A stretch of DNA of 64,000 bases, taken from the NCBI GenBank assembly GCA_963705215.1, contig CAVPJI010000010.1, forward strand, positions 104,564 through 168,563. Direction: 5' to 3'. This DNA comes from an uncultured Chloroflexia bacterium (GTDB lineage Bacteria > Chloroflexota > Limnocylindria > Limnocylindrales > CSP1-4). The position numbers and the translations under genes are program-made. Shown here piece by piece: positions 1 through 56,873 of this stretch. The notes below the pieces were generated by a model. The model was not told where the DNA came from and made no database searches. It worked only from the letters and a program-made list of their open reading frames with translations. Position 1 is the stretch's first letter; every line of letters starts with the position of its first letter.

Positions 1-996
1 CGGGCGATGATGCGGGCCTCGGCGCCGGCGAGGGCGCGACCCTCGTCGTCACCCGCGACGTGCGCACGTTCGCCGAGGCGGACCTGCCCGCCGGCGAGGT
101 GGAGGTCCGCGTCGGCTGGTCCAGCGTCAACTACAAGGACGGGCTCGCGACCATCCTGAACGGCAAGGTCGCCCGCATCAGCCCGCTCATCCCGGGGATC
201 GACCTCGCCGGCGAGGTGGTCGCGAGCGACGACCCGACGATCCCAGTGGGCGCGCATGTCCTCGCTCACGGCCACGACCTGGGCGTCGCCCGCCACGGCG
301 GCTATGCCGAGTACCAGCGCGTGCCGGCCGGCTGGATCGTGCCGATGCCGGGGGGCCTCACCCCGCGGTTCGCGATGGCGGTCGGGACGGCCGGCTTCAC
401 CGCGGCGCTCTCCGTGGTCCGCATGGAGGAACGGGGCCTCGAGGCCATCGAACGGGCCGGTCCTCGTGACCGGCGCGAGCGGCGGCGTCGGGTCGAACGC
501 GGTCGGGATCCTCGCTGGCCGCGGCTACGAGGTCTGGGCCGCGACGGGCAAGGCCGACGAGGCGGACCGCCTCCGGGGCATCGGCGCCGCCGGCATCCTG
601 GCGCGCGACGACGTCACCGCCGGGAGCGCCCGCCCGCTCGAGTCGGAGCGCTGGGCCGGCGCCGTCGACTGCGTCGGCGGGTCCACCCTCCCCTACATCC
701 TGCGCACGCTCCGCCGCGGCGGCACCGTGGCCGCGTCCGGCAACACCGGCGGCCCCGCCTTCGCGACCACCGTCTTCCCGTTCATCCTTCGCTCGGTCGC
801 GCTCGTCGGCATCGACTCGGCGGTTGTGCCGATCGCGGAGCGTCGCGCCGTCTGGGAGCGGATCGCCACCGACCTGCGCCCGCGCGGCCTCGGCGACGCG
901 CTCACCGAGGTGACGCTCGACACGCTCCCCGGCGCGCTCGACGCCATCCTCGCGGGCCGGGCCCGCGGCCGGTGGATCGTGCGCATCGGCGGCTGA
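1..996 (+). pseudogene. YhdH/AcuI-like NADPH-dependent oxidoreductase (MDR superfamily), 5' end outside window. The reading frame breaks near 455-470: the N-terminal part is in the frame of ORF 60..1523, the C-terminal part in the frame of ORF 256..996.
   Basis: The N-terminal part (…VEVRVGWSSVNYKDGLA…PLIPGIDLAGEVV…) and the C-terminal part (GPVLVTGASGGVGS…VAASGNTGG…RGRWIVRIGG) together match the YhdH/acrylyl-CoA reductase family. They sit in two different frames that join around a GGGCCGG run (…IERAGP | NGPVLVTG…). Confidence 0.7.
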
Positions 997-1119
997 GCTC
1001 GACGGCGGGATCGGTGCGGCTCGCGCCCCGGCGCGCGTGTCGGCCGTGTTGCGGCTCAGCTACCGCTATGCCTGCTGCCGACCGCCGTGCCTGCCGCCGC
1101 GCCCGCCGATCCGTCCCCC

Positions 1120-1345
1120 GCCGCGGACGCGCTTGCGTTGAACGCACAACCGCGCACCCCGCGGACCGGCCAGCGGTCTCGACGGCAGGATCCTTGCGTT
1201 GGACGGCGGCTTCCCTTCTCAGCCAGCTTTTCGACGAGGACCGCGACCCGCCGGATGACGGATCCATGCGTCTGACCCGCGAGAACCTGCAGACGACCAT
1301 CGATCAACCAGGGCGTGCTGCGCGGTTGTGCGTTGCACGCAAGGC
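1120..1345. repeat. Divergent copy of the dispersed repeat family (see 9107..9395). It carries the terminal palindromes TTGCGTTGAACGCA and TGCGTTGCACGCAA and the internal GGCAGGATCCTTGCG and CTGACCCGCGAGAACCTGC blocks.
   Basis: Direct comparison with the copies at 9107..9395 and 10250..10541. The ends and two internal blocks are conserved, the rest is diverged. It lies in the convergent yhdH/vapC intergenic region. Confidence 0.5.
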
Positions 1346-1559
1346 CCAACCTGGCTCTCGACCTTCGGCCCGCAGCCACGGCGGTCACCGTGGCGCGGCG
1401 TCACCGGGCCCGCACCTCGACCGTGAGCATCGATCCGTCATCACCGTGAGCTGGCTTCAGCTCGAAGCACTCCTCGGCGGTGCGAGAGCGCGGGGTCTCC
1501 CCGATGAGGCGGGTCCAACTTGAGGATGGCCGTGGCCCATTGATCCTGCCTCTGCTCCA

Positions 1560-2389: not shown

Positions 2390-3445
2390 GTGGTGTCGGG
2401 AAGGCATCGTGCGCCTGACGGCGAGGGGCCGGAGAGCCGCGCGCCGGAGAGCCGTGCCGGGACCGCGTACGCTGCGGCCGTGGAACCCTTGGAGCGCCGA
2501 TTCGCCCCCGTTGAGCCCGTCGACCTGCGCCTGACGCTGGCCATCCACCGGCACGGACCCGGCGACCCCACGATGCGCTTCTCCCGCGACGGGTCGACCT
2601 GGCGAGCCTCGCGCACGCCCGAGGGGCCGGCAACACTGCGGCTGATGGCAGATGCCGACGGGATCCGGGCGCAGGCGTGGGGGCCGGGCGCCGGCTGGGC
2701 GATCGAGCAGGCACACGAGCTGGTCGGCGCCGACGACGACCCCGGCGAGTTCGCGGCCCTGGTGGCCGCCGCCCGGTCTCCGCTGCTCGCTACCTTGTTA
2801 GCACGCTACCGCGCTATCCGGGTGGGACGAACTGGACGCGTCCTGGAGGCGCTCGTCCCGGCGATCATCGAGCAGAAGGTCACCGGCGACGAGGCACGCA
2901 GCGCGTTCATGGCCCTGGTCCGGCGCCACGGCGAGCCGGCGCCGGGGCCGTGGGAGACCGCGGGAGCGGCCGCAGGGCGGGATGAGGGACGCCCCGCCCC
3001 GATGCGGGTGATCCCGGCGCCGGAGCTGCTCGCCGGCCTGCCCGGGTACGCCTACCACCCGCTCGGGCTCGAGCGTCGGCGGGCCGACGCGATCCGCTTC
3101 GCGGCGTCGAGGGCGACGCGCGTCGAGGAGTGCGCCGCCATGTCCCTCCCCGACGCCTACGCTCGTCTCCGTGCCCTGCCGCTGGTCGGACCCTGGACGG
3201 CGGCCGAGGTGGGCCTGCGGGCGCTCGGCGACGCGGACGCGGTGAGCGTGGGCGACTTCCACCTCGGCCCGGCGGTCTGCTGGGCGCTCGCGCACGAGGA
3301 GCGCGGAACCGATGAGCGGATGCTGGAGCTCCTCGCCCCGTTCGCCGGGCATCGGGCGCGGGTGATCCGGCTCATCGAGGCTGCAGGGATCCATGCCCCG
3401 CGCCGCGGTCCCCGGATGGCGCCGCGCTCGATCGCGGGGATCTGA
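2390..3445 (+). CDS. AlkA-like DNA-3-methyladenine glycosylase, HhH-GPD superfamily. The true start may lie downstream of 2390.
   Basis: The central and C-terminal part (LVPAIIEQKVTGDEARSAFMALVRRHG…LPLVGPWTAAEVGLRALGDADAVSVGDFHL) fits the HhH-GPD base-excision fold with the catalytic Asp region. Confidence 0.55.
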   Translation: MVSGRHRAPDGEGPESRAPESRAGTAYAAAVEPLERRFAPVEPVDLRLTLAIHRHGPGDPTMRFSRDGSTWRASRTPEGPATLRLMADADGIRAQAWGPGAGWAIEQAHELVGADDDPGEFAALVAAARSPLLATLLARYRAIRVGRTGRVLEALVPAIIEQKVTGDEARSAFMALVRRHGEPAPGPWETAGAAAGRDEGRPAPMRVIPAPELLAGLPGYAYHPLGLERRRADAIRFAASRATRVEECAAMSLPDAYARLRALPLVGPWTAAEVGLRALGDADAVSVGDFHLGPAVCWALAHEERGTDERMLELLAPFAGHRARVIRLIEAAGIHAPRRGPRMAPRSIAGI

Positions 3446-3498
3446 GGGCGGGGCGGGGCCGACCTGCTGACGCGCGGCCGGCCGTCCGGCCGTGGCAC

Positions 3499-4104
3499 AT
3501 GGGCCGCTCGGCCGTTGGCGGCGCGCCGGCCGCCGAGGACGATGGCGCCATGAGGTGCACCCAGTGCCCAGCCTGGCGAGGCGCCGGCGGCGGCGCCATT
3601 CTGCTTGTCGGCCTGTTGGCGGCCGAGTCCCTGGTCGCCGGTTGCGGTGGATCGCCGGCGCCGGCATCGACCCCGCCGCCAGTGGCCTCGCCCGGTGCGG
3701 CCGAGGTCCGGGCCTACTTCGTTCCCGGGGGCGCGGATCCGTGCGGCACGGTTGTGCCGGTCGTGCGAAAGGTCGCGGGCCCCGTGACCGCCGAGATCGT
3801 CCTGCGCGAGCTCCTGGCCGGACCGACCGCCGACGAGGCCGCCGCCGGCTTCGCCAGCATCTTCGGGCCGGCGACCGCCGATGCGCTCATCGAGATGATC
3901 ATCGTGGACGGGATCGCGCGCGTCTCGTTCCGCGACCTGCGACGGGTCATCCCGAACGCGTCCTCGTCGTGTGGCAGCGCTGCGCTCCTGGGTGCCCTCG
4001 ACGCGACCCTTGCCCAGGTCCCGGGGATCCGCGCTGCCCGCTACTCGTTCGGCGGCGACGAGGCCGCGTTCTACGAGTGGCTCCAGATGTCGCCGCCGGA
4101 CTGA
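3499..4104 (+). CDS. GerMN-domain lipoprotein (alternative start at 3547, MRCTQ…).
   Basis: Lipobox LVAGCGGS after a hydrophobic segment. The LRELLAGPTADEAAAGFASIF…IVDGIARVSF segment looks GerMN-like. Confidence 0.5.
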   Translation: MGRSAVGGAPAAEDDGAMRCTQCPAWRGAGGGAILLVGLLAAESLVAGCGGSPAPASTPPPVASPGAAEVRAYFVPGGADPCGTVVPVVRKVAGPVTAEIVLRELLAGPTADEAAAGFASIFGPATADALIEMIIVDGIARVSFRDLRRVIPNASSSCGSAALLGALDATLAQVPGIRAARYSFGGDEAAFYEWLQMSPPD

Positions 4105-4221
4105 TCCAGCCCGCGTTCCGCGGGCCGCTCCGCCCGCCGGGCCGTGGCCTGCCGTTGTCTATCATTACCGTCGCTGCCTCGGTGACGTCCTTTCCGCGGC
4201 GCAGCAGATCAGTCTCGTGTT

Positions 4222-4238
4222 AGAGAGAGAGAGAGAGA
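4222..4238. repeat. (GA)8 dinucleotide microsatellite forming the purine tract (AGAGAGAGAGAGAGAGA) immediately 5' of the tupA ATG.
   Basis: Seen directly: …gttagagagagagagagagaATGacg. A purine-only run is very unusual in this ~70% GC sequence. Confidence 0.8.
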
Positions 4239-5174
4239 ATGACGACCCATGCGGGCGCCTCGCGGCGCGCCCTCCCCATGATCGGAGCGGTGATCGTGGC
4301 GGCAGCCCTCGCCGGCTGTTCCGGCGGCGCGTCGCCCAGCCCGGCCGCCCCGTCGGCTTCGACCGCCGCATCGCCGGAGGCGACCGCCATGGCAACACCG
4401 GCCGGATCGAAGGACCTCATCCTGGCGACGACCACGTCCACCCAGGACTCCGGCCTCCTGGACGTGCTCGTCCCCGCCTTCGAGGAGGCCTCGGGCTACA
4501 GCGTGAAGACGGTGGCCGTTGGCAGCGGGCAGGCCATCGAGATGGGCGAACAAGGCAACGCCGACGTCCTGCTGGTCCACTCCCCCGCCGCGGAGAAGGA
4601 GCTGGTGGCCGCGGGATACGGCATCGACCGCCGGCTCGTCATGCACAACTCCTACCTCGTCGTCGGCCCGTCGGCAGACCCGGCCAAGATCAAGGGCATG
4701 ACGTCCACGGTGGACGCGTTCAAGGCGATCGCCGGGACGGAGTCGACCTTCGTCTCGCGCGGGGACGAGTCGGGCACCCACACCAAGGAGCTCGGCTACT
4801 GGAAGAAGGCCGAGATCACGCCGGAGGGCGCCTGGTACATCGAGACGGGCCAGGGGATGGCCGCGACGCTGCGGGTGGCCTCGGAGAAGGCGGGCTACAC
4901 GCTGACCGACATCGCCACCTGGCTCGCCACGCAGGAGCAGCTCGACCTCGAGAGCCTCGTGACGGACGATCCGTCGCTGCTCAACCCGTACCACGTCATC
5001 CAGGTGAACCCCGAGAAGTTCCCGAAGGTGAACGCGGCGGGCGGCAACGCCTTCGCCGATTTCCTGCTCTCCCCGGAGGCGCAGGCGATGATCGGGGAGT
5101 TCGGCGTGGACGAGTTCGGGCAGCAGCTCTTCATCCCCGACGGTGGGAAGACCGACGCCGATCTCGGTCTCTGA
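4239..5174 (+). CDS. tupA: Tungstate ABC transporter substrate-binding lipoprotein TupA.
   Basis: Lipobox LAGCSGG. The TupA signature TTTS (ILATTTSTQDSGLLD) is present. It is followed by the permease and ATPase genes. Confidence 0.85.
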   Translation: MTTHAGASRRALPMIGAVIVAAALAGCSGGASPSPAAPSASTAASPEATAMATPAGSKDLILATTTSTQDSGLLDVLVPAFEEASGYSVKTVAVGSGQAIEMGEQGNADVLLVHSPAAEKELVAAGYGIDRRLVMHNSYLVVGPSADPAKIKGMTSTVDAFKAIAGTESTFVSRGDESGTHTKELGYWKKAEITPEGAWYIETGQGMAATLRVASEKAGYTLTDIATWLATQEQLDLESLVTDDPSLLNPYHVIQVNPEKFPKVNAAGGNAFADFLLSPEAQAMIGEFGVDEFGQQLFIPDGGKTDADLGL

Positions 5175-5254
5175 CCGTCGGACGGTGACACGGACGGCGT
5201 GAGGGGCGCGCCCGCGGTGGAGCCCGGCTCCGCGCGACGAGGAGCACGATCGAG

Positions 5255-5914
5255 GTGAGTGGCGACCCGGTTGCCTACATCGTCGAGATCACCCTGCTCT
5301 CGCTCGCGGTCTCGGGCGCGGCGACCGCCATCAGCGTGCTGATCGGGCTGCCCATCGGGACGTGGCTGGCGCTGTCCCGGATGCGGTCGCGCGGCGTGGC
5401 CCTCAGCGTCGTCAACACCGGGATGGCGCTGCCGCCCGTGGTCGTCGGCCTCGTCGTCGCCCTGCTCCTCTGGCGGAGCGGCATCCTCGGGGGCCTCGGC
5501 CTCATGTACACGCCGGGGGCGATGGTGATCGCGGAGGTCATCATCGCGGCACCGGTCATGGCCGGGCTCACGGCGGCGGGCCTGGGCCAGCTGGACCCGC
5601 GGCTCCAGCTCCAGCTCCAGGGCCTAGGCGCGTCGCGCTGGCAGACGACCTGGTGGCTCTGGCGCGAGGCGCGCCTGCCACTCCTGGCGGCGCTCATGGC
5701 GGCCTTCGGCAGCGTCATCTCCGAGGTGGGGGCGGCGATGATGGTCGGCGGGAACATCGCCCACCAGACCCGCGTGCTCACGACCTCGATCGTCCTCGAG
5801 ACCGGGCGCGGCGAGTTCGGGAACGCGATCGTCCTCGGGCTCGTGCTGCTCACCCTCGCCTTCATCGTGAACGGTGTCCTGACCTGGGCCCAGCAGCGCG
5901 GGCCACGTCGCTGA
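5255..5914 (+). CDS. tupB: Tungstate ABC transporter permease TupB.
   Basis: About six TM segments and a conserved ABC permease EAA-like loop. Its stop overlaps the tupC start (ATGA). Confidence 0.85.
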   Translation: MSGDPVAYIVEITLLSLAVSGAATAISVLIGLPIGTWLALSRMRSRGVALSVVNTGMALPPVVVGLVVALLLWRSGILGGLGLMYTPGAMVIAEVIIAAPVMAGLTAAGLGQLDPRLQLQLQGLGASRWQTTWWLWREARLPLLAALMAAFGSVISEVGAAMMVGGNIAHQTRVLTTSIVLETGRGEFGNAIVLGLVLLTLAFIVNGVLTWAQQRGPRR

Positions 5915-6891
5915 TGGCCGCGGTCCGGCGCATCGAACCCCGCGACCCACCCCGGCCCGGGGAGCCGTTCCTCGAGGTCCGGGGTCTTGAGGTCGTGCGC
6001 GCGCAGCGGCGCATCCTCGCCGTCGACGAGCTCACGATCCGGGCGGGCGAGACGCTCGCGATCGTCGGTCCCAACGGCGCCGGCAAGAGCACGCTGCTCC
6101 TTGCTCTGGCCGGCCTCCTGCGCCCGGATCGGGGCTCGATCGTCGTCGAGGGCGTGCCCGTGGTCCCCGACCGGGACCTGACCTACCGACGACGGATCGG
6201 GCTGGTGCTGCCCGCGCCGCTGCTGCTGTCGACGTCGGTCTACGGGAACGTCGCCGCTGGCCTGCGCTTCCGGGGCGTCGACGCAGCGGAGACCCACGAG
6301 CGGGTCGAACACTGGCTGGAGCGGCTGGCGATCTCCCACCTGTGGGACCGTCCGGCCAGCCAGCTCTCGAGCGGCGAGGCGCAGCGGACGAGCCTCGCCC
6401 GCGCCCTGGTGCTGGATCCGGAGCTGCTCCTGCTGGACGAGCCGTTCGTGGCGCTCGACAGCAGGACGCGCGCGCAGCTCCTCGATGACTTCGAGCGGCT
6501 CCGGGCCGAGGCCCCGACGACGCTGGTGCTCGTGACGCACCACCTGCACGAGGCCGTCCGGCTGGGCGACCGCCTGGCCGTCCTGCTCGACGGGCGCATC
6601 CGCCAGTGCGACGTCCCGGAGCGGGTGATGGGGTCGCCGGTCGACGCGGACGTGGCCGCGCTCGTGCAGACCGAAGCGCGGATCCGGGGGCACGTGGTCG
6701 CGTCGGAGGACGGGCTGGTGGTCGTGGACACGGGAGCCGGGTCGAGACGGGACGTGGAAGGCCGTGCCCGGCGCCTCCTGGACGCGACGCACGCGACCGG
6801 ACCTGCGGCACGCGACGGCGCCAGCGGGGCGCATGATGCGAGCAGCGGAGCGGACGTACGCGCCGCGGCGGGCGGCCCTGGAGGTTCGTGA
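5914..6891 (+). CDS. tupC: Tungstate ABC transporter ATP-binding protein TupC.
   Basis: Walker A GPNGAGKST, signature LSSGEAQR, Walker B LLLLDEP, H-loop. The real protein starts at MAAVRRIEP inside ORF 5362..6891. Its stop overlaps the AOR start. Confidence 0.8.
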   Translation: MAAVRRIEPRDPPRPGEPFLEVRGLEVVRAQRRILAVDELTIRAGETLAIVGPNGAGKSTLLLALAGLLRPDRGSIVVEGVPVVPDRDLTYRRRIGLVLPAPLLLSTSVYGNVAAGLRFRGVDAAETHERVEHWLERLAISHLWDRPASQLSSGEAQRTSLARALVLDPELLLLDEPFVALDSRTRAQLLDDFERLRAEAPTTLVLVTHHLHEAVRLGDRLAVLLDGRIRQCDVPERVMGSPVDADVAALVQTEARIRGHVVASEDGLVVVDTGAGSRRDVEGRARRLLDATHATGPAARDGASGAHDASSGADVRAAAGGPGGS

Positions 6892-9116
6892 TGGGGTACG
6901 GGAGCAACGGGACGATCCTGCGGGTCGACCTGACCCGCGGAACCACCGCCGTCGAGACCTTCGAGGAGTCCTTCTACCGGCGCTATCCCGGCGGGAAGGC
7001 GCTCGCTGCGTACCACCTCCTGCGCGAGATGCCGGCCGGGGCGGATCCCCTGGGTCCCGACAACGTCCTCGTGCTCGCGACCGGCCTCCTGACCGGCGCG
7101 CCCGTCTCCACGGCGACGCGCTTCAATGCCATCGCCCGGTCGCCCCTCACCGGCGCCTTCGGCGAATCGGAGGCCGGCGGCTACTGGGGCCCCGAGCTGA
7201 AGATGGCCGGGCTCGACGCGATCATCCTCACCGGGCGGTCACCGGAGCCCGTCTGGCTCTGGATCCGCGACGGCGTGGCCGAGATCCGCGACGCGCGGAC
7301 GCTCTGGGGCCAGGACCCGCCGACGGTGCAGGCCGCCATCAAGGCCGCAGTCGGCGAGAAGAGCGCGCGGGTGCTCCAGATCGGCCGCGCCGGCGAGAAC
7401 CTCGTCCCCTACGCGATGCTCATGAACGAGCTGCGCCACTACAACGGCCGCACCGGGATGGGCGCCGTCATGGGCTCCAAGAACGTGCGGGCGATCGCGG
7501 TGAAGGGCTCGCGAAGGTACCTCGAGCTGGCCCACGACCCGGGGGCCCTCGGGGCGATCGGCAAGCGCCTCGCGGGGGAGATCGCCGACCACCCCCAGGG
7601 CTGGGACCTGCGGACGAAGGGAACGCCGGGCCTGACCGACGGCCTCAACGCCGGCGGCATCCTGCCGACGCGCAACTTCCGGCTGGGGTCGTTCGAGCAG
7701 GTCGAAGGGATCGGCTGGGCGGCCTACGAGGCCATCCGCAGCGGCACCCGCACCTGCTACCTGTGCGCCGTCCGCTGCAAGCCGGAGACCGCGTTCTCCG
7801 GGCGCTACACGGTCACCGACACCTACGACGGGCCGGAGTACGAGGGGATCGCCGGCTTCGGCTCCAACTGCGCGATCTTCGACCTCCAGCTGGTGGCCAG
7901 GGCCAACGAGCTGTGCAACGAGCTGGGCCTCGACGTCATCTCGACCGCGGGCACCGTCGCCTTCGTCATGGAGTGCGTGGAGCACGGCCTCCTCGGGCCC
8001 GCGGACCTCGGGGGCGTGGACCTGCGGTTCGGCAACGGCGAGGCGCTTCTCGACACGATCCCGCTCATCGCCGAGCGCCAGGGGATCGGCGAGCTGCTGG
8101 CCCTCGGATCGCGGCGGATCGCCGAACAGGTCGGCGGCGAGGCGATCTCCTTCGCCATGCAGGTCAAGGGCCTCGAGATGGCGATGCACGAGCCGCGTGG
8201 CAAGGTCGGCGTGGCCCTCGGCTACGCCACCAACGAGGCCGGGGCGGACCATCTCGTCGGCTTCCACGACGGCGTCTTCGTCAACCCCAAATCGGTCTCG
8301 TTCAAGGGCGCCACGAAGATCGGGATCACCGAGCCGGCCGACGTCTTCGACCTCGGTGAGACGAAGGTCCGCAACTGGTACACCGCGGAGCGCTGGAACA
8401 GCGCCGAGAAGGTCCTGGGCCTCTGCTTCTTCGGCCCGGCCCCGCGCTCCTTCATCCAGGTCGACGACGTGGTGGGCGCCGTGCGTGCCGCGACCGGCTG
8501 GGATGTCACGGTGGACGAGCTCCTCGACGTGGGCGAGCGGGCGGTCAACCTGGCCCGGCTCTTCAACGTCCGGGAGGGCTTCTCGCGGGCCGACGACCGG
8601 CTGCCCGGCCGGCTCCACGAGCCGCTCGAAGGCGGGACGCTGACGGGGCGCTCGATCGACCGCGAGGCGTTCGAGGCGGCGGTCACCCGGCTCTTCGAGC
8701 TCAAGGGCTGGGATCCGGCGACCGGTGTGCCGACGCCGGAGCGGCTGCGCACCCTGGGCCTCGACTCGGCCGCGGACCGGGTGGCGCTCGGGGGTGCCGC
8801 GCCCGGGGGTGCCGCGCCCGGGGGTGCCGCGCATCGGGGGTGCCGCGCTCGGGGCGCCAGGCGGATCCGTCGAGGCCCTGTGAAGGTCCATCTCTGGGGC
8901 GAGCTCGGCTTCTACGGCCCCGAGCGGCGGAGCCGGTTCGAGGTCCGGCTCGACGCCGAGCTGCCCCTGCGCGAGGTCCTGCGCCTGATCGGGGTGCCAG
9001 AGGCCGAGGTCGCGGTTGTGGGGCTCAACGGCGAGGTGGTCCGGCTCGACGACCCGTCCCTCGTCGTCCGCGACGCGGACCGCCTCGACCTCTTCCCGGC
9101 GACGAGCGGAGGCTGA
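6888..9116 (+). CDS. aor: Tungsten-containing aldehyde:ferredoxin oxidoreductase (AOR family). It runs in frame through a Gly/Ala/Pro repeat linker into a C-terminal MoaD/ThiS-like beta-grasp domain ending in Gly-Gly.
   Basis: MMGYGSNGTILRVDLTRG…, CYLCAVRCKP (4Fe-4S Cys motif), and the full-length AOR fold through …GVPTPERLRTLGLD. There is no stop codon before the linker GGAAPGGAAPGGAAHRG and the 79-aa tail. Confidence 0.9.
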   Translation: MMGYGSNGTILRVDLTRGTTAVETFEESFYRRYPGGKALAAYHLLREMPAGADPLGPDNVLVLATGLLTGAPVSTATRFNAIARSPLTGAFGESEAGGYWGPELKMAGLDAIILTGRSPEPVWLWIRDGVAEIRDARTLWGQDPPTVQAAIKAAVGEKSARVLQIGRAGENLVPYAMLMNELRHYNGRTGMGAVMGSKNVRAIAVKGSRRYLELAHDPGALGAIGKRLAGEIADHPQGWDLRTKGTPGLTDGLNAGGILPTRNFRLGSFEQVEGIGWAAYEAIRSGTRTCYLCAVRCKPETAFSGRYTVTDTYDGPEYEGIAGFGSNCAIFDLQLVARANELCNELGLDVISTAGTVAFVMECVEHGLLGPADLGGVDLRFGNGEALLDTIPLIAERQGIGELLALGSRRIAEQVGGEAISFAMQVKGLEMAMHEPRGKVGVALGYATNEAGADHLVGFHDGVFVNPKSVSFKGATKIGITEPADVFDLGETKVRNWYTAERWNSAEKVLGLCFFGPAPRSFIQVDDVVGAVRAATGWDVTVDELLDVGERAVNLARLFNVREGFSRADDRLPGRLHEPLEGGTLTGRSIDREAFEAAVTRLFELKGWDPATGVPTPERLRTLGLDSAADRVALGGAAPGGAAPGGAAHRGCRARGARRIRRGPVKVHLWGELGFYGPERRSRFEVRLDAELPLREVLRLIGVPEAEVAVVGLNGEVVRLDDPSLVVRDADRLDLFPATSGG
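8791..8850 (+). repeat. About 4 tandem copies of a 15-bp unit (GGGGGTGCCGCGCCC) encoding the (GGAAP)n linker between the AOR and MoaD-like parts.
   Basis: Seen directly: gggggtgccgcgccc gggggtgccgcgccc gggggtgccgcgcat cgggggtgccgcgct. Confidence 0.8.
8880..9116 (+). other. MoaD/ThiS-like sulfur-carrier domain (VKVHLWGELG…LFPATSGG*). It has an in-frame GTG that could also act as an independent start.
   Basis: It is 79 aa and ends exactly in GG before the stop. The beta-grasp pattern (V..NGE.V…D.L…P..GG) is like MoaD/AorD. Confidence 0.6.
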
Positions 9117-9395
9117 CCGGGCGGAGCGTCGGCCAAAGCCGCCGACCCACCTTGCGCTGAACGCAACACCCCGCGGCCCGGCGGTCAGCTCACGTCCGCC
9201 CACGGGTCCCCACGGCAGGATCCTTGCCTTGGCCAACCGCTTTCCTGCCGTCGCCATCCTCAGGACCAGGCCGGGCTGTCCGGAGGGCAGCCTTCTTGCG
9301 CCTGACCTGCGAGAACCTGCTGGGCGAACGTGACCGCCTGCGCGGTGTTGCGTTGAACGCAACCCCGACCGGCGCGGGGGGGTGCCGGGCCAGAG
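9107..9395. repeat. Dispersed repeat copy A (about 290 bp), immediately after the AOR stop. The terminal palindromes are TTGCGCTGAACGCAA and GTTGCGTTGAACGCAAC, and there is an internal near-palindrome GGCAGGATCCTTGCC.
   Basis: Near-identical to 10250..10541 over about 290 bp in direct orientation. The ends are TTGCG-N5-CGCAA palindromes. Confidence 0.85.
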
Positions 9396-9488
9396 TCGGC
9401 GCCGGGCACGAGGCGGCGCCGCGGATCACGCTCGGACAGTCAACTCGCCGTTGAGTCGCATGTAAGTGACGCCACCCACAATGGCTGC

Positions 9489-10142
9489 GTGGCATCGATC
9501 GAGCGCCTCATGGACCGCGCCAACCAGCGCGCCGACGCGGCCATTCGCGGGGCGGGCCGGGAGATCCGCATTGCCCGCCGGGATCGGAACCTCAGCCTCG
9601 ACCGAGCCGGGGCGGCCGCAGGCATCTCCGCTGCGGCGACGAGCCGGATCGAACGCGGGCTCGCTCCGGAGGTGTCAGTCCTGAGGTTGACGCAGCTCGC
9701 CGAGGTTGTCGGCCTCGAGCTGTCTCTGCGCCTCTTCGCAGGCGGTTCCCCCATCCGCGACGAGGTCCACGCTTCACTCCTGGGGCGCTGTCGTGACGGA
9801 ATACACCCCAGCCTCCGATGGTCCATCGAGGTGCCGCTCCCGAACCTGGGTGATGACCGGGCATGGGACGCGATGGTGTCGGGTCCCGGCTGGCGGTACG
9901 GCGTCGAGGCGGAGACGGCTCCTCGCGACGTGCAGGCTCTATCCAGGCGCCTTGCGCTCAAGCTCCGCGACGGTGACGTGGATGGCATCATCCTCGTTCT
10001 TCCACGCACTCGACGGGTCCGCGAGTTCCTCGCCGCGAGCCGCGGAATGCTGGCCGAGGCGTTCCCGATCCCGGGAACAGTCGCTCTGGCTCGATTGAAG
10101 GACGGGCTCGACCCCGGCGGCAGCTCGATCATCCTTATCTGA
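9489..10142 (+). CDS. XRE-family helix-turn-helix transcriptional regulator with an uncharacterised C-terminal domain of about 140 aa.
   Basis: IRIARRDRNLSLDRAGAAAGISAAATSRIERG is an HTH_XRE motif. The C-terminal region (WRYGVEAETAPRD…DGIILVLPRTRR) matches no domain I can name. GTG start. Confidence 0.7.
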   Translation: MASIERLMDRANQRADAAIRGAGREIRIARRDRNLSLDRAGAAAGISAAATSRIERGLAPEVSVLRLTQLAEVVGLELSLRLFAGGSPIRDEVHASLLGRCRDGIHPSLRWSIEVPLPNLGDDRAWDAMVSGPGWRYGVEAETAPRDVQALSRRLALKLRDGDVDGIILVLPRTRRVREFLAASRGMLAEAFPIPGTVALARLKDGLDPGGSSIILI

Positions 10143-10249
10143 CGGGCAGGGCGACGCGCACCGAGTGGTGGGGCGACGCGCACCAAGGACGGGGCACCTC
10201 CCGCTGGCGTTCCCGCCCGCTGATCCGCCCGACCCGTGTCCTGCGGCAA

Positions 10250-10541
10250 CGGAGGCTGACCGGGCGGAGCGTCCGCGGCACGTGGGCCAAGCCGCCGACC
10301 CACCTTGCGCTCAACGCAACACCCCGCGGCCCGGCGGTCAGCTCACATCCGCCCACGGGTCCCCACGGCAGGATCCTTGCCTTGGCCAACCGCTTTCCTG
10401 CCGTCGCCATCCTCAGGACCAGGCCGGGCTGTCCGGAGGGCAGCCTTCTTGCGCCTGACCTGCGAGAACCTGCTGGGCGAACGTGACCGCCTGCGCGGTG
10501 TTGCGTTGAACGCAACCCCGACCGGCGCGGGGGGTGCCGGG
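10250..10541. repeat. Dispersed repeat copy B, a direct repeat of copy A, between the XRE stop and the moeA 3' end.
   Basis: The same about 290-bp sequence as 9107..9395, with a few mismatches. Confidence 0.85.
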
Positions 10542-10595
10542 TCGACCGGCCGGCCCCAGACCACCCGCAGGGTCAGGCGTCCCGAACCGCGAGCG

Positions 10596-11871
10596 TCAGG
10601 CGTCGAGTCCGCGAAGCACCCAGGCGACGGTCTCCGCGCCCGCCGGGAGGTCGACGTCCGGCGGGATGAACAGCATGCCGTTCGCAAGCGAGAGCGAGGC
10701 CAGCATGTAGGAGTCCTGGCCACCCGACGAGCGGGCGACGAGCCCGTCCGGGCGGTCCGGGTCAGGTGCCAGGGCGACGCGGGCGACGGTGATCCGGCCG
10801 TCGGACCCCCGCATCGGCTCGGTGAGACGGACGATGCGTTCCGGCCGGTCGAACGCCCGCGCATGGCCGGCCAGCAGGCGCAGGACGGGCCGCACGAAGA
10901 GCTCGAACGTGACGAAGACGCTCACCGGGTTCCCGGGAAGCCCGAAGAGGCGGACGGATCGACCGCCGACGGTCGCCCGGGCGAACGCGAACGGGCGTCC
11001 CGGCTTGATCGCGACCCGCCAGACGTCCAGCGTCCCGACGTCGGAGAACGCGGCCTTGACATGGTCGTGCGCGCCCACGCTGACGCCGCCGCTGAGGATG
11101 ACGACGTCGGCCCAGGCCACGCCCTCGCGGACGAGCGCGAGCAGGTCGGGCAGCGTGTCGCGCGCGACGCCGAGCCGGCGCACCTCGGCGCCCGCGTCGG
11201 CCGCCTGCGCTGCGAGCGCGTACGAGTTGGAGTCGTGGATCTGGGCCGGCCCCAGCGGCTGACCGGGCGGAACGAGCTCGTCGCCGGTGGAGATCACCGC
11301 GACGCGCGGCCGGCGGTGAACCGTCACCGTGGCGTGCCCGGTGGCCGCGAGGAGCGCGATGGCCGCCGGATCGCAGGCCCGGCCGCGATCGAGGAGGGCG
11401 GCGCCGGCGACCACGTCGGTACCGGGGAGGCGCACGTTGGCACCCCGGCGCAGGGCGGCGCAGGATCGCGACCGAAGCGGGGATCTCCGAGGCGCCGGCC
11501 GACGCATCCGTGTCTTCGACGGGCACCACGACGTCGGCGCCGGGCGGCATCATCGCGCCGGTCATGATCCGGAGCGCCGTCCCGGGCACGACCTCCCCGT
11601 CCGGGGTCCGGCCGGCGGGCACCTCGCCGAGAACCCGGAGGACGACCGGATGGCCGGGGCCCGCCGCGGCGATGTCCTCGAAACGGGCCGCGAAGCCGTC
11701 CATGGCGCTGTTCGTCCACGAGGGAACCGTCAGCTCCGAACGGACCGGGCCGGCCAGGACGAGGCCTGCGGCGTGGGCGAGGTCGACGACCTCCACGGGG
11801 AGCGGTTCGATCCCGTCGAACACCCGGCGCTGGGCCTCGGCGAGTGGGATCAGGTCCGGAAGATCGGGCAT
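10596..11871 (-). pseudogene. moeA: Molybdopterin molybdenum/tungsten-transferase MoeA, disrupted by a 10-bp tandem duplication (about 11445-11464; CCGGCGCAGG/GCGGCGCAGG on the plus strand).
   Basis: The N-terminal MoeA part is in ORF 10762..11871 and the C-terminal part (…VAVISTGDELV…GGVSVG…LPGNPVS…) is in ORF 10596..11507. Removing one 10-bp copy restores …SVAILRRGANVRLPGTDV…. Confidence 0.8.
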
Positions 11872-16765: not shown

Positions 16766-17253
16766 CGGTCGAACCAGCTCCCACCCAGCTCGTCGGCCTG
16801 CGACTCGTCCAGCTCGGCGCGGCCGCCCGCCCGTGCGGCACCGGCACGGAGCTCGGCCAGGCGGGCGTTGCCGGCGGCCTCGGTCGCCCCGGCCCAGGCG
16901 TCGTCGGCGAGGAGAGCCCGCAGTGCCTCGAGATACGCCTCAGCGCAGGCAGCGACCAGGTTCACGTCACGGGCGGTCCCGACATGGCGCCCCGTCGCTC
17001 GCTCGCCGGTGGCCGTGGCGGGCGGCTCGACCGCAAGCTCCACCAGCGCGTCGGCGCCGGCCGTCTCGCCGATCGCGTGGACGTCGAACGAGACCAGGCG
17101 CACGCGCCCGCCGAGAACGTCCGCGAGGGCGGCGTCCACGGCGTCGAACAGCGATCCGATCGCGCCCGCGCTCTCGGCCGTGGCCTCCCACTGGTGATCG
17201 CCGGCGGCAAGGACGACGGCCGCCCGGGCGATGCCCGACGAGCCGGTCGTCAT
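16762..17253 (-). CDS. Standalone protein resembling the LeuA C-terminal allosteric/dimerisation (LeuA_dimer) domain, translationally coupled (ATGA) to pheA.
   Basis: AGAIGSLFDAVDAAL…RVRLVSFDVHAIGETAGADALVELAVE…VGTARDVNLVAACAEAYLEAL runs parallel to the regulatory domains of both LeuA-family proteins in this window. It lies in the C-terminal part of the spurious-looking ORF 16762..19761. Confidence 0.45.
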   Translation of the reverse strand: MTTGSSGIARAAVVLAAGDHQWEATAESAGAIGSLFDAVDAALADVLGGRVRLVSFDVHAIGETAGADALVELAVEPPATATGERATGRHVGTARDVNLVAACAEAYLEALRALLADDAWAGATEAAGNARLAELRAGAARAGGRAELDESQADELGGSWFDR

Positions 17254-17348
17254 CGTCCAGCGGAGAAGGTGCAGCCCCTCGGGCCGGGGCACCGGCCCAC
17301 CGGGCGCCCCGCGCGCGCCCAGCCCAGCTTCGCCGCCCCGGTGCTCGC

Positions 17349-19067
<1,719 letters not shown>

Positions 19068-19138
19068 TGGGGTCACGGATCGGTTCCTTCGAAGTCGAGT
19101 CGGACTGGATCGGGCGGCTCGGGCTTGGGCGACCGCCG

Positions 19139-45358: not shown

Positions 45359-47014
45359 GTGATCGAACTGCTCCCTGTCGGCAGCACGTTCGCCGGCTAC
45401 CAGGTCGATGCCGTCCTCGCCAGGGGTGGGATGGGCGTCGTCTACCTGGCCACCGAGCTGCGGCCCCGCCGGCGCATCGCCCTCAAGCTGATCGCGCCTG
45501 CCGTGGCCGCCGACCCGGCCTACCGGGAGCGCTTCCTGCGCGAGGTCGACGCCCTTGCCGCCCTCGAGCACCCCAACGTCGTCCCGATGCATGCCGCCGG
45601 GGAGTGGGAGGGCCAGCTCTACCTGGCGATGCGGTTTCTCGACGGGCCGGACCTCGCCGAGGTCGTCCGGACCCGCGGCCCCCTGCCGCCCGCGGAGGTC
45701 ATCGTCCTCCTCGCCCCGATCGCCGATGCGCTCGACGTCGCCCACGCCCGCGGGATCGTTCACCGCGACGTCACGCCCTCGAACATCCGCCTCGACGCCC
45801 GCGGCATCCCTTACCTGACCGACTTCGGCCTCACGAAGCGGGCCGCGACCTCGGGTCCGACCGCGCTGACGCTGGGGCCGATGGGGACGCCGGCCTACAT
45901 GGCGCCCGAGCAGTTCGCGCACGACGCCGCGGCGCCGGCGCCGGATCCCGCGCTCGCGCCGCGGGCCGACGTCTACGCCCTCGGGTGCGTGCTCGTCACG
46001 CTCCTGACGGGCACGCCACCGTACCCGCGCGACACCTACGAGGCCGCGCTCTGGGCGCACGTCCACGCGGACCCACCCGCAATCTCGGAACGCGTGCCGG
46101 GTCTCCCCGCCACCCTCGATGCGGTGGTCGCCCGGGCCATCGCCAAGGATCCCGCCGCACGCTTCCCGACGCCCGGCGCCCTCGTCGCCGCCGCGCGGAC
46201 GGCACTCGCCGGAACCGGGCGGGAACCGACGGCATCTCCCACCGCCATCACCGTCGCGGCCGGCGGGCTACCCGACCCATCCAACGCGAAGCGCCGCCGG
46301 GGCCTCGCGCGCGTTGCCGGGACGGTCGGGGCCATCGCGCTCGTGGCAGTTGCCGCCGGCTTCGTCGTCGGCGCCGGGCTGCTCGTCGCCGGATCGGCGG
46401 GCGCCGGGCCCTTCGCGTCGCCGACCCCGCCGGCCGCGGCGGGAGCCCAGCCGACGCCGCGCCTGACTCCCCGGCCCACCCCGCGGCCGACGCCGACGCC
46501 ATCGCCGACTCCGTCCCCCACTCCCTCGCCCACACCGGTTCCCACGCCGCGCGTCGGTGCGCCCGAGAACGTCGCCCGGCTTCGCGCCTGGATTCCGCGC
46601 CAGGTGCGCAACGACTGCAGCTCGGCCGAGGTGACCTACGCGAACGAGCTCGCCGCGCTCGTCTGCTCGGCCAAGGACACGAAGGCGGTGCGTTACACCC
46701 TCTGGGACGACCCGGCCGCCCTCCGGTACCGATGGGACCGGTTTGTCGCGCGGGCGGTGACGACGGCTGGCGGCCGCTGCGAGGCCGGCGAGGAGGCCAC
46801 CGGACCCTGGGGTGACCAGGGCATCTTCGGGCTCTTCGGCGAGACCCGCGGCCTGATCGCCTGCAGCGTCGAGAGCGACGGCGACGCACGCGTCGACTGG
46901 ACCGTCACCGACGCCCCCATCTGGGCGACCCTCTGGCGCGACGACGAGGACATCGCCGCCGCGTACGCCACGTGGTCGGAGGCGCGCCTGAACCCGCTCC
47001 GCGAGCCGCGCTGA
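45359..47014 (+). CDS. Hanks-type Ser/Thr protein kinase with one TM helix and a Cys-containing extracellular C-terminal domain.
   Basis: ARGGMGVVY…ALKLI (Lys), [18 protein letters not shown], and [11 protein letters not shown] helix [22 protein letters not shown] Pro/Thr linker is followed by a domain of about 150 aa with 4 Cys. Confidence 0.8.
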
Positions 47015-47019
47015 GCCGG

Positions 47020-49846
47020 CTACCTGACCTCGAACACCGCGGCCGCCATCGCCGGCCCGCCCATCGCGTCGGCCCCGGCCATCCCCGCCTCGTCGGCGCC
47101 CGCCCCGTTGGCCGCCGCGGCCGTCTCCTCCGACGGCGCGCACGAGAGCGTGAACGTCCCGGGTTCGGACAGGGCGAAGCGCGCCGACTGCTCTTGGCCC
47201 GGGCGCGGGTTCAGCTCGACCTTGGGCGCGCCCGGCAGGACGCAGAGATGGAGCACGTCGGCATCGTTCGTGAACGTGACCAGGATCTGCTCGCCGGCCG
47301 CGACCTGCCAGACCGGGGCCGGCTCGCCCAGCGCGGACGCCTGCAGCTCCACCGGCACGGCGGTCGCATCGAGCCAGCGGTTGACCCCGATCACGGCCGC
47401 CGCCACACCGACCGCCAGTCCCGCGATCACGGCCAGGTACGCCGCGTCCTTCACCCGCGTCCAGGTCCGGTGCTGGGCGGCGGCGAGGACGGCCGATGGG
47501 CGCGGGTCGTAGCCGCGCAGGCGCAGCGAGTTGGAGATGACGCTCACCGACGAGAGGGCCATCGCGCCGGCCGCCATGGCCGGGTTGAGCGTGATCCCGA
47601 ACGAGCGGGTAGAGGATGCCCATGGCGATCGGGATGAGGGCGACGTTGTAGGCGAACGCCCAGAACAGGTTCTGGCGGATCACCGCCATCGTGCGGCGCG
47701 AGAGGGCGATCGCCGCGACCACGCCGCGCGGGTCACCGCCGACGAGGGTGATGTCGGACGCCTCGATGGCGACGTCGGCGCCGGTGCCGATCGCCACGCC
47801 GAGGTCGGCCGCCGCGAGGGCCGGGGCGTCGTTGATCCCGTCGCCGACCATGGCCACGACCTTGCCGCGGGCATGCAGCTCGTCGACGACCCCCGCCTTG
47901 TCGCCGGGGAGCACCTGGGCGCGGACGCGCTCGGCCGGGATCCCGACCTGCGCCGCGACCGCGAGGGCAGTGGCCCGATGGTCGCCGGTCACCAGCCACG
48001 CCTCGATGCCGGCGGCCCCGAGCGCCCCGACGGCCTCGGCGGATTCGGGCTTGACCGGGTCCGCGATCGCGATCAGGCCAAGTGGCACGCCGTCGGCGGC
48101 CACGAAGACCGGCGTCCACCCGACGGCGGCCTGCGCCTCGCCCGCTGCTGCCAGCCCGTCGCCGCCGGCGGCCGGATCACCCAGGGCGATGCCGCGCTCG
48201 GCCAGGAAGCGGGCGCTGCCGACGAGGATCGTTCGTCCCTCGACCGTCGCCTCGGCGCCGCCGCCCGCAGTCGCGACGAATGCGTCACCGCCGGGGAACG
48301 CGAGCCGGCGCTCGCGCGCCGCCAGGAGGATCGCCGAGGCCAATGGGTGCTCGGAGCCCGCCTCGACTGCCGCGGCCAGGCGGAGGAGGTCGTCCTCGGC
48401 AAGATCGCCGGCGGGAATGAGCGCGGCGACGGCCGGCTTCCCCCGCGTCAGCGTCCCGGTCTTGTCGAGGATCACCGCGGTCACGCGGTGGGCGTTCTCG
48501 AGCGCCTCCCCGCCGCGCACCAGGATCCCGGCCTCGGCGCCGCGACCCGTCCCGACCATGATCGCGGTCGGCGTGGCGAGCCCCATCGCGCAGGGGCAGG
48601 CGATGATCACGACGGTGATGAACGCGGCGAGCGCGAGGGTCAGCTTCGGCTCGGGCCCCAGGAGCCACCAGAGCGCGAAGGTGGCGGCCGCGATCCCGAG
48701 GACGATCGGGACGAAGACGCCGCTGATCTGGTCGGCCAGGCGCTGAATGGGGGCCTTGCTGCCCTGGGCGCGCTGGACCATCTCCACGATCTGGGCGAGG
48801 GCGGTGTCGCGCCCGACGCGGGTGGCCCGCATGACGAAGCTGCCGGTGGTGTTGATCGTGGCCCCGATCACCTCGTCGCCGGGGCCCTTCGTGACCGGCA
48901 TCGCCTCGCCGGTCAGCATCGCCTCGTCGACGGCGCTCGAGCCCTCGCTGACGACGCCGTCGACCGGGACCTTCTCGCCCGGGCGAACGCGCAGGAGGTC
49001 GCCCGGCTGGACCTGCTCGATGGCCACGTCGACATCCCCGTCCGCGCGGACGAGCCGGGCGGTCCTGGCCTGGAGCCCGACCAGGCGGCGGATCGCGCCG
49101 GTCGTGCGGCCCTTCGCCTGCGACTCGAGCCACTTCCCGAGGAGGATCAGGCCGATGATGATCGTGGAGGAGTCGAAGTAGGTCTCCGCGGGCAGGCCGG
49201 CCCGCATGATGACCTCCGGGTACATCGTCACGAAGACCGAGTAACCCCACGCGGCACTCGTGCCGACGGCGACGAGCGTGCTCATGTTCGTGCCGCCGTG
49301 ACGGGCGCTCTTCCAGGCGGCCTGGTAGTAGCGACGTCCGGCCCAGAACTGGATGAGGGTCGCGGGCCAGAGGACGAGCCGATTGACGTCGTGCATCGTC
49401 AGCGGGAGGGGCGCGAACATCAGGACCATGATCCCGATCGCCACGCCGATGCTCGCGGCCGACTGGATCCCGAGCTCGCGCTGCTCGCGGGAGCGGGTCC
49501 GCTCGGTCTCGTCGAGCTCGTCGTCCTTCGTCGCTGTCTCGACCGCGCCGGTCGCCCGCGCCTCGGCGGCCTCGAGCGAACCCGGGCGCACCTCGTAGCC
49601 CGCCTTCTCGATCGCCCCGACGAGCTCGCCACGCCCGACGGTCTCGGGCAGGTAGCGGATCGTGGCCACCTCGGTCGCGAGGTTGACGTTCGCCTCCACG
49701 ACGCCGTCGGTCTTGCGCAGGAACCGCTCGATCCGGTTGCTGCACGACGCGCAGGTCATCCCGACGACAGGGAACGAGACCTCGACGGGCGGCGGTGCCG
49801 ACGGCGGGGCCTGCGGCGTGGGGGTGGTCGGGACGCTGGCGCTCAT
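47020..49846 (-). pseudogene. copA: Cu+-exporting P1B-type ATPase CopA with a frame break near 47600 (between TM7 and TM8). The frame holding TM8 continues into an extra TM helix and a periplasmic beta-rich domain of about 110 aa with a Met-rich tail.
   Basis: [18 protein letters not shown] ([11 protein letters not shown]), [15 protein letters not shown] in ORF 46268..49846. The TM8 motif [20 protein letters not shown] is in the frame of ORF 47020..47577. Between them is …ILYPL(g)FGITLNP…. The tail ends …[21 protein letters not shown]. Confidence 0.75.
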
Positions 49847-50308
49847 ACTCCCCCGGAGTATAACAGGGCATCAAGGCGCCCCGACGGGCGCGCCGAGATG
49901 GTGTCGTGCGGGCGGGTCGTCGGGTTCCACGCCGAACGGGCCGTCAGGACCTTGACCGCGGGGCATGCCCGCCGGACGATGCGGGCATGACGCGCGAGAG
50001 GACGGGCGACCCAAAGGATGGCGACCAGCACGAAGGCGGTGCCCGGTTCGTCCCGGTAGCGGGGTCGTTCGGGACGGCTGCAGTCATCCCGGGACCGATC
50101 ACCGCCGGGCCGCCGCAGCCCGAGCCGGAGGAGCGCTGGACGCTCGCCCCGGGCCACCGGCCGGCCGCTCCGGGTTCCACGGTCGACGAGCCGGTCGAGG
50201 GCGTCGTCGCCAGCCCCGAACCCGTAGAGCCGTAGCCGCGCCGCGCCGCGCTCGGCAGCCGCCCGAACCGGGCGCTTCCCCCCTCGGGCGGGACGCTACA
50301 CTCCGGCG

Positions 50309-55493: not shown

Positions 55494-55642
55494 TCAGCCC
55501 TCCCGCATTTGCCCTGGCCTCAACGGGCGAATGCTACGAGCCGCGGCTGGGCGTCGCAATGGGGCGGCGCGAGAATGAACCGAGGGCGGGCCCCCCGGCC
55601 CGCCCTCGGCGCCTTGCGTGCTCGATCCCAGTGAGGCCGCGG

Positions 55643-56264
55643 TCAGTCCTTGCGGCGGATGGCCCGCTTGGCCTCGCTGATCAGGTTGCTGCGAGAGGCG
55701 GCACGCTGGATGTCGTGCTCCTTGGCGCGGGCAAGATCCCGCGCAAGGACCGGGTTCATCGTCCCGATCATGTGGCCCTCGACGTCGACCTCGCCGATGC
55801 CCTTGGCCTTCTTGACTCCCTCGGGCGCCTTGGCCTTCTTGACGTGGCCCTCGACGTCGTCCTCGACGGCCCTGCTCTTGATGACGCCGTCGGGGGCCTT
55901 CTGCTTGATAGACGTGGCCCTCGACGTCGTCCTCGACGGCCTTGCTCTTGATGACGCCGTCGGGGGCCTTCTGCTTGATCACGTGGCCTTCGACGTCGTC
56001 CTCGACGGCCTTGCTCTTGATGACGCCGTCGGGGGAGCTCTTCTTGTAGACGTGGCCCTCGACGTCGTCCTCGACGGCCTTGCTCTTGATGACGCCGTCG
56101 GGGGCCTTCTTCTTGATAGACGTGGCCTTCGACGTCGTCCTCGACGGCCTTGCTCTTGATGACGCCGTCGGGGGCGCTTCTTCTTGATAGACGTGGCCTT
56201 CGACGTCGTCCTCGACGGCCTTGCTCTTGATGACGCCGTCGGGGGCCCTCTGCTTGCTTGTCAT
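55643..56264 (-). pseudogene. Repeat protein with about 6 tandem 23-aa units (APDGVIKSKAVEDDVEGHVYK-K) and a conserved tail (…GHMIGTMNPVLARDLARAKEHDIQRAASRSNLISEAKRAIRRKD). The frame is broken because three of the DNA repeat units are 70-71 bp instead of 69.
   Basis: I translated the minus strand manually. The frame is lost after unit 1, restored after unit 2, and lost again after unit 5. The listed ORF 55494..56264 continues out of frame. The sensible C-terminus is in the +1 frame and ends at about 55643. Confidence 0.5.
55842..56261 (-). repeat. Tandem array of six 69-71 bp units (GACGTGGCC-CTCGACGTCGTCCTCGACGGCCTTGCTCTTGATGACGCCGTCGGGGGCCTTCT-GCTTGATA). The periods are 70, 69, 69, 70 and 71 bp.
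   Basis: Seen directly on the plus strand. The ACGTGGCC anchors are at about 55842, 55912, 55981, 56050, 56120 and 56191. Confidence 0.85.
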
Positions 56265-56441
56265 GTGCGGTCCTCCTTGGGGATCGAGTGGTCCGGACTG
56301 CGCCGGTGCCCGGATGATGCTCGTGCGGGGGGTCCGGGTAAAGGGGCGATCTGACCGCCGACCTGTCGTCCTCGCGACAGGCGCCGGGTCGCAGCCGATC
56401 GAGTCCGGCGACGCCCGCGATCGGAGCCGCCCGCCGCCCCG

Positions 56442-56873
56442 TCAGGGGCGCTGGACGGGCCGCATGGGGAAGACGCCGATCACGAGGGGGCTCGTCGGAT
56501 CCAGGAGGAGCTCGTAGCCAACGTCGCCCTGGCGGAGCAGGTCGCCCAGCAGTCCCGTCTCGCGCTCCGGCAGGCCGATGAAGATCCGCTGGCCGTCGAC
56601 GTCGACGCCTGAGACATCGTCGTCCGCGCCATTCAGGCCGAAACGCCGGCGCAGCTCGTGGAGTGGCACGTACGGGCGGCTCTTGATGAATCTGCGCAGC
56701 TGGGCCTGGGTGCAGGGTGTCGGCGGCTCCGGCGCGGCTCCGTCAGGCCCAGGCATCGCGGCGGACACCTCGGCTGCGGGCGCGTCCACGAGCGCGGGCG
56801 CGGCGGGGCCGGCCGGAGGCGCGGCGGAGAGGATCTCGTGCTGGGCCGTGGGCTCCAGCCGCTGGTCGCTCAT
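56442..56873 (-). CDS. Hypothetical protein of about 143 aa.
   Basis: ORF with a Pro/Ala-rich N-terminal half and a structured C-terminal half (…LRRFIKSRPYVPLHELRRRFGLNG…). No family recognised. Confidence 0.35.
   Translation of the reverse strand: MSDQRLEPTAQHEILSAAPPAGPAAPALVDAPAAEVSAAMPGPDGAAPEPPTPCTQAQLRRFIKSRPYVPLHELRRRFGLNGADDDVSGVDVDGQRIFIGLPERETGLLGDLLRQGDVGYELLLDPTSPLVIGVFPMRPVQRP

Follow-up and report, generated by a model that had tools for sequence, protein, structure and literature searches.

An apparent fusion of a putative aldehyde:ferredoxin oxidoreductase with a MoaD/ThiS-like protein most probably stems from one extra base in a tandem repeat

Does a single open reading frame (ORF) of 742 amino acids (aa) in an uncultured Chloroflexia bacterium encode a putative aldehyde:ferredoxin oxidoreductase (AOR) fused to a MoaD/ThiS-like protein, or does it join two genes that are naturally separate? 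The ORF (6888..9116, + strand) lies in a stretch of 64,000 nucleotides (nt) from contig CAVPJI010000010.1, here called the window. It is present in the window as given, with the terminus ...FPATSGG directly before the stop codon and a GTG in frame at 8880; in these respects the first-pass annotation, which was made from the sequence alone and proposed the fusion, described the locus correctly. If true, such a fusion would suggest that a tungsten enzyme carries a self-contained module for maturing its cofactor, but the evidence speaks against it. The apparent AOR–MoaD fusion rests on one extra base, a C at 8832, that is absent from every independent relative. As judged from sequence comparison, this base most probably reflects an indel error in the assembly consensus, and the fusion ORF would be an artefact. 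The features at the junction are these, L080 being a near-identical Joint Genome Institute (JGI) contig:

6888..8883, + strand: aor in its native reading of 664 aa, with AFOR_N and AFOR_C as full profiles; obtained by virtual deletion of C 8832, with the same C-terminus as in L080
8784..8854, + strand: 15-bp tandem repeat found by Tandem Repeats Finder (TRF), consensus GCGCTCGGGGGTGCC, 4.7 copies, encoding the GGAA[P/I/L] tail of the AOR
8832..8832, + strand: extra C, by blastn against L080 and alignment; the fourth repeat unit has 16 bp, GCGCATC (8829-8835) against GCGATC in relatives
8832..8879, + strand: out-of-frame stretch, HRGCRARGARRIRRGP in the given frame and IGGAALGAPGGSVEAL in the native frame, as judged from codon usage
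8880..9116, + strand: moaD/thiS-like gene, 78 aa, with a GTG start and a GlyGly-stop end; Pfam ThiS (E 1.8e-6) and Ub-Mut7C, 120 listed standalone homologues, AlphaFold2 (AF2) model

The two parts of the ORF are readily recognized. Pfam matches AFOR_N (PF02730) at residues 8-207 (profile 1-198/199, E 2.2e-71), AFOR_C (domains 2 and 3; PF01314) at residues 225-625 (profile 3-385/385, E 1.3e-115) and ThiS at residues 685-742. The matches to both domains expected of the AOR family thus span the full profiles, and the AOR sequence contains a CxxCxxxC cluster motif (CYLCAVRC). Beyond the catalytic fold, which ends at about residue 625, the AOR continues as a short disordered Ala/Gly tail. An exact search for the 742-aa product matched no record. 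The naming of the parts as a complete AOR and a MoaD/ThiS-like beta-grasp domain with a free GlyGly end is borne out by Pfam, AF2 and Foldseek, although the small unit, previously given as 79 aa, has 78 aa when counted from the GTG.

Between these parts lies the repeat, which had been described as a linker of four 15-bp copies. The array is real (TRF score 119, 92% matches, 3% indels) but irregular, with one 16-bp unit, and it does not encode (GGAAP)4. Its GGGGGTGCC cores begin at 8790, 8805, 8820 and 8836, at spacings of 15, 15 and 16, and the fourth unit has GCGCATC in place of a 6-base GCGxxC. Upstream of the irregular unit the reading frame gives GGAAP-GGAAP-GGAA (about 2.8 GGAAP units in frame), and downstream of the extra C the repeat is read one base out of register. 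Because the extra C shifts the frame by +1, the TGA at 8881-8883 is skipped and the ORF enters the moaD-like frame. Virtual deletion of any one base within 8826-8849 restores a 664-aa AOR that ends in ...GGAAIGGAALGAPGGSVEAL (longer form ...GGAALGAPGGSVEAL) at this TGA, which, in the sequence GTGA, shares bases with the start codon of the moaD-like gene, GTG 8880. The peptide across the fusion junction reads HRGCRARGARRIRRGPVK, and the C-terminal peptide of the separate AOR reads ...GAPGGSVEAL. Neither repeat expansion nor read-through of a former stop, the two routes to fusion previously suggested, describes the junction; a single extra C joins the two frames instead.

Independent sequences of the same locus carry two overlapping genes. 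The contigs that encode the three closest homologues of the tail (L080 to L083) come from four different metagenome assemblies, and each of the four has aor and the small gene as separate gene calls that overlap by 4 nt. A blastn alignment of the window with L080 covers 2321 bp at 99.57% identity, with 8 substitutions and two indels, both of which are an extra C in the window, at 8832 in the repeat and at 9375 in intergenic sequence. The L080 junction equals that of the window except for GCGATC in place of GCGCATC, and its AOR has the same C-terminus as the virtually repaired AOR. A scan of a metagenome collection for the DNA junction pattern matched one further contig, L084, which has 6.9 perfectly periodic units (array at 2110-2212), GCGATC twice, a GTGA overlap and the unfused form; a variable-gap pattern scan of the metagenome collection aimed at both alleles gave no match. 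The AORs of L081 to L084 end in ...GAPGGSVEA[L/R] and a stop, with differing repeat numbers. The closest locus from a metagenome-assembled genome (MAG), L001, encodes an AOR that is 97-98% identical and likewise shows the GTGA overlap. L081, L082, L083, L084 and L001, all from other samples and assemblies, have this overlap and in-frame repeats without indels. A natural fusion would be expected to recur in orthologues or independent sequences; six of six close independent contigs carry separate genes. The first-pass annotation had named a stop codon between the two frames as what would speak against it, and such a TGA is in effect present in independent sequences. Where the extra C at 9375 stands, absent from both L080 and L081, it adjoins a run of seven G.

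The two-gene layout extends to more distant relatives. Among 24 related loci from Chloroflexota-type genomes that carry both aor and a moaD-like gene, nine have a GTGA or ATGA overlap, and in 12, among them the more distant L027, the genes are separate and lie 0 to about 200 nt apart; read-through occurs only in L012 and L022, both from Nanopore-only MAGs of the Microflora Danica catalogue (PMC12313526). At L022 (about 6120) an additional frameshift lies inside the moaD-like gene, and at L012 (about 5915) the start codon of that gene is lost. In a collection of 5.8 billion proteins the tail has 184 homologues, of which the 120 listed are without exception standalone proteins, 78-98 aa long; the best 150 of 176 matches in a profile search of 1.84 billion representative proteins include no C-terminal fusion to an AOR-sized protein. 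Across 42 aligned homologues conservation begins at residue 1 (M/V/L, then K/R-V-H-L-W-G-E-L-G-F-Y), and GTG 8880 is therefore the family start codon. The suggestion that this GTG could serve as a separate start was well founded, as the start codon is conserved in every aligned homologue, whereas most of the orthologous loci, to which the annotation had pointed as a check, hold the moaD-like gene apart from aor and no conserved fusion was found in the family. At least two aor paralogues per genome occur in L001/L022 (one MAG, CAVUAG01) and in L006/L026 (one contig). Both paralogues of the former precede a moaD-like gene; no such gene follows aor in L006 or L026 within the sequence covered for each.

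Coding statistics at the junction agree with the native frame of the relatives. We built a codon table from seven confidently identified genes of the window, with frames corrected, and scored the 16 codons of 8832-8879. Read in the given frame they have a log-likelihood of -70.5, against -56.6 in the shifted frame, a deficit of 14 nats, whereas in true coding windows of equal length from the seven training genes the real frame leads the +1 frame by 20.5 +/- 7.7 and none is as unfavourable as -14. The linker of a natural fusion would be expected to have normal coding statistics; this stretch falls outside the range of true coding windows. It is also rich in arginine (7 of 16 residues, against 7.3% in the training genes). 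A Viterbi frame segmentation based on GC content at third codon positions (GC3) missed this 48-nt stretch, which is too short for the method.

The insertion at 8832 has company. Three further conserved genes of the window contain frame-breaking indels, each where the family profile switches frame, and the GC3 segmentation flagged frame shifts in all three. A YhdH/AcuI-type acrylyl-CoA reductase gene (yhdH-like; ORFs 3..1520 and 160..993, + strand) is split near 445 (440-450), with TIGR02823 positions 12-143 in one frame and 142-324 in another. In moeA, MoeA_N positions 1-112 and 120-160 fall in two frames; deleting G11460, a 1-nt insertion absent from L083, restores a MoeA of 424 aa. A CopA-type P-type ATPase gene (copA; − strand, ORFs 46271..49870 and 47023..47679) breaks near 47600, so that its last transmembrane segment (TIGR01511 513-542) lies in a different frame from positions 1-515. 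With four single-base lesions in 64 kb and coding statistics undisturbed after each, residual assembly indels fit much better than four simultaneous genuine mutations. The load is about one frame-breaking indel per 16 kb, and unusually long or split ORFs in this window need checking against relatives. Further Viterbi flags at 15732, 27539 and 55908 were read from the ORFs as ordinary gene boundaries or low-complexity sequence, of which Pfam bore out only 27539. In the region 55500-56450 (− strand), a repetitive low-complexity coding region with K/A/P/E-rich repeats, the GC3 frame call flips. We considered the GCGC context of the three mapped insertions as a methylation-related error motif and rejected it, as GCGC occurs about every 65 nt here and the coincidence is not significant.

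The junction resembles fusions created by indels in long-read assemblies, in which a 1-nt insertion removes a stop codon, an Arg-rich out-of-frame bridge follows and other split genes lie on the same contig; L012 and L022, with an analogous read-through plus further lesions, are Nanopore counterparts. The genomes closest to the window are Nanopore-only MAGs that received one round of Medaka polishing (PMC12313526). Three points weigh against an assembly error. Some 45 further ORFs in the window seem intact, so that the assembly is not grossly error-ridden. Position 8832 lies in a tandem repeat outside any long homopolymer, the classical context of Nanopore errors. Finally, we infer the error from the comparisons above, with which a true strain mutation would still be compatible. 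Even so, a GC-rich tandem repeat just upstream of an overlapping stop and start is a site at which a single-base error yields a convincing in-frame 'fusion'.

Among the alternatives, a genuine and recent mutation of the strain survives best, although we consider it unlikely. The extra C would then produce a real AOR-linker-MoaD protein with a free GlyGly end, and free MoaD-like protein might still arise from GTG 8880. In its favour, no stop interrupts the ORF in the given sequence, tandem repeats are prone to mutation and this one varies in copy number between relatives, the C-terminal position leaves the GlyGly free, and a GAGG motif is retained 5 nt upstream of the GTG. Set against this are the 99.6% identical relative and five more independent sequences without the insertion, codon usage past the insertion that still suits the old frame, the lack of a conserved fusion in the family, and the three other 1-nt lesions within these 64 kb, since four genuine mutations arising together would be hard to explain. 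We think it improbable that the window records a newborn fusion in which a tungsten AOR is covalently joined through the repeat linker to its own ubiquitin-like sulfur carrier while the unfused form dominates the population. Far less likely is a regulated product, with programmed frameshifting or transcriptional slippage in the G-rich repeat giving both a separate AOR and an AOR-MoaD fusion: a run of five G in each repeat unit and the overlapping frames at the junction are circumstantial points for it, but the zero frame of the relatives already stops at GTGA so that no shift is needed, Rfam finds no element at the junction, and neither the number of repeats nor the unit (15 or 18 bp) is conserved as a selected recoding signal would be. 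That the reference contigs instead share a 1-nt deletion error and the window is correct can practically be dismissed. Tandem repeats can admittedly be mis-assembled from short reads, but six sequences that differ in sample, centre and assembler give the same result, and their arrays, unlike that of the window, show perfect periodicity; the array, at about 70 bp, would also fit within a typical short read, and the reading of these six is the arrangement conserved across the clade.

In this lineage the Ala/Gly tail of the AOR is encoded by a genuine variable-number repeat, with about 1 copy of the 15-bp unit in L083, 2 in L082, 4.7 in the window and L080, 5 in L081 and 6.9 in L084; L001 (5939-6138) has 11.1 copies of an 18-bp unit (AAGASV) instead, giving an AOR of 719 aa. 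Because the units are multiples of three, changes in copy number leave the frame intact and only a single-base insertion alters it. This analysis gave no sign of a function for the tail. AORs of the Pyrococcus furiosus type share the two full-length Pfam domains and the CxxCxxxC motif; the clade of the window differs from them in this lineage-specific, repeat-encoded tail, which ranges from 5 to 88 aa and is hypervariable between close relatives.

We then considered the small protein on its own. Against Pfam ThiS (PF02597) the 78-aa sequence scores 28.8 bits (cut-off 22.5), Ub-Mut7C is also matched, and no NCBIfam model matches it. The ubiquitin-like fold expected of the tail is predicted with confidence: the AF2 model is a beta-grasp with a predicted local distance difference test (pLDDT) score of 93.8 and a predicted template modelling (pTM) score of 0.83, and Foldseek searches of the PDB place MoaD, ThiS, TtuB, Urm1 and SAMP1 on top (probability 0.99-1.00, template modelling (TM) score 0.55-0.76), the best matches being Staphylococcus aureus MoaD (2q5w_D), ThiS, TtuB, MoeB-MoaD (1jwb_D), Urm1 and SAMP1. 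G77 and G78 are invariant in the 42 aligned homologues, with the stop codon next. In size, beta-grasp fold and invariant C-terminal GlyGly the protein resembles the MoaD/ThiS/TtuB/SAMP group (PF02597), from which it differs in its weak sequence similarity to any solved member and in the lack of a moaE or E1-like partner within the window. By profile, predicted fold and C-terminus it is a MoaD/ThiS-type beta-grasp protein, and it may be MoaD proper or another ThiS-like carrier.

By analogy with MoaD and with the aorD/aorE genes of Aromatoleum aromaticum, the 78-aa protein may supply sulfur for the tungsto-pyranopterin cofactor of the AOR. In the standard mechanism, which is the likeliest here, an E1-like enzyme would adenylate and thiocarboxylate its C-terminal glycine, and the sulfur would be used to build the dithiolene of the pyranopterin that the AOR needs. 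Some observations sit less easily with this role, which we infer from analogy only: the best sequence-profile matches in the PDB are P. furiosus SAMP2 (E 9e-4) and TtuB, at about 1e-3, rather than MoaD, and among the approximately 55 ORFs of the 64-kb window Pfam identifies no moaE and no moeB/thiF. In five of 51 distant AOR loci from other phyla, a small GG-terminated ORF follows aor.

The genes around aor and the moaD-like gene are these:

4239..5174, + strand: tupA-like gene for a tungstate-binding protein; NCBIfam NF041772 TupA (E 1.3e-67, below the equivalog cut-off), Pfam PBP_like_2 (E 1.6e-51)
5255..5914, + strand: ABC permease, TupB/ModB-like; NF038017 (E 1.8e-71), TupB (E 3.9e-40), BPD_transp_1
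5914..6891, + strand: ABC ATPase, WtpC/ModC-like (tupC); ABC_tran (E 1.2e-32), NF040840 WtpC (E 3.5e-55, below the cut-off)
10596..11871, − strand: moeA, for metal insertion into molybdopterin, convergent with the operon; MoeA_N; broken by the 1-nt insertion at 11460

The start given for tupA is the first ATG of an ORF that is open from stop to stop from 4224, and aor starts at GTG 6888 or ATG 6891, after GGAGG at 6880-6884 and overlapping the tupC stop. Successive genes share stop/start overlaps (TGATG at 5912-5916 between tupB and tupC, GTGATG at 6888-6893 after the GGAGG, and GTGA at 8880-8883), which points to a single operon with translational coupling. The locus is very probably an ordinary five-gene tupA-tupB-tupC-aor-moaD-like operon in a high-GC (73%) Chloroflexota-type genome, with moeA convergent downstream; the AOR and the 78-aa protein would be made separately, their translation coupled through the GTGA. 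The tupABC and moeA neighbourhood is suggestive, being in keeping with tungsto-bis-pyranopterin and [4Fe-4S] cofactors and with aldehyde oxidation by the putative AOR. Rfam searches, run over 8600-10700 with E up to 1 and over the whole window at the gathering threshold, found no credible RNA element, no molybdenum or tungsten cofactor (Moco/Tuco) riboswitch and no frameshift element, and a promoter and terminator scan of 3400-10700 gave no signal above shuffled expectation.

The operon is of a known kind, and its repeat-encoded AOR tail is only a minor curiosity. In the aor operon of A. aromaticum EbN1, aorD and aorE are small MoaD-like genes whose products are separate polypeptides, absent from the purified enzyme and regarded as putative maturation factors of the tungsten cofactor (PMC6365974). 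Compared by layout, the two systems share a small MoaD-like gene in the same operon as the catalytic subunit of a tungsten AOR; A. aromaticum differs in its three-subunit AorABC and two MoaD-like genes, whereas the window has a single-subunit-type AOR, one 78-aa gene and tupABC upstream.

Several minor features lie near the operon or elsewhere in the window. A (GA)n microsatellite at 4222-4239, directly upstream of the tupA start, differs in length from that of L001. Downstream, a direct repeat of 251 nt (9131-9381 and 10284-10534, 98% identical), which matches no Rfam family and reaches back weakly into the moaD-like gene at its 3′ end, brackets a gene for a 217-aa HTH_31 protein (9489..10142). 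L083 has a single copy of this repeat and no such gene between moaD and moeA, and it seems that about 1.15 kb, the repeat with its HTH_31 gene, has been inserted or duplicated here. Further along, a complete LeuA/CimA-like gene (17378-19088) is followed immediately downstream by an ORF (16767-17377, − strand) whose sole domain is LeuA_dimer (profile 20-130) and which may be a truncated duplicate.

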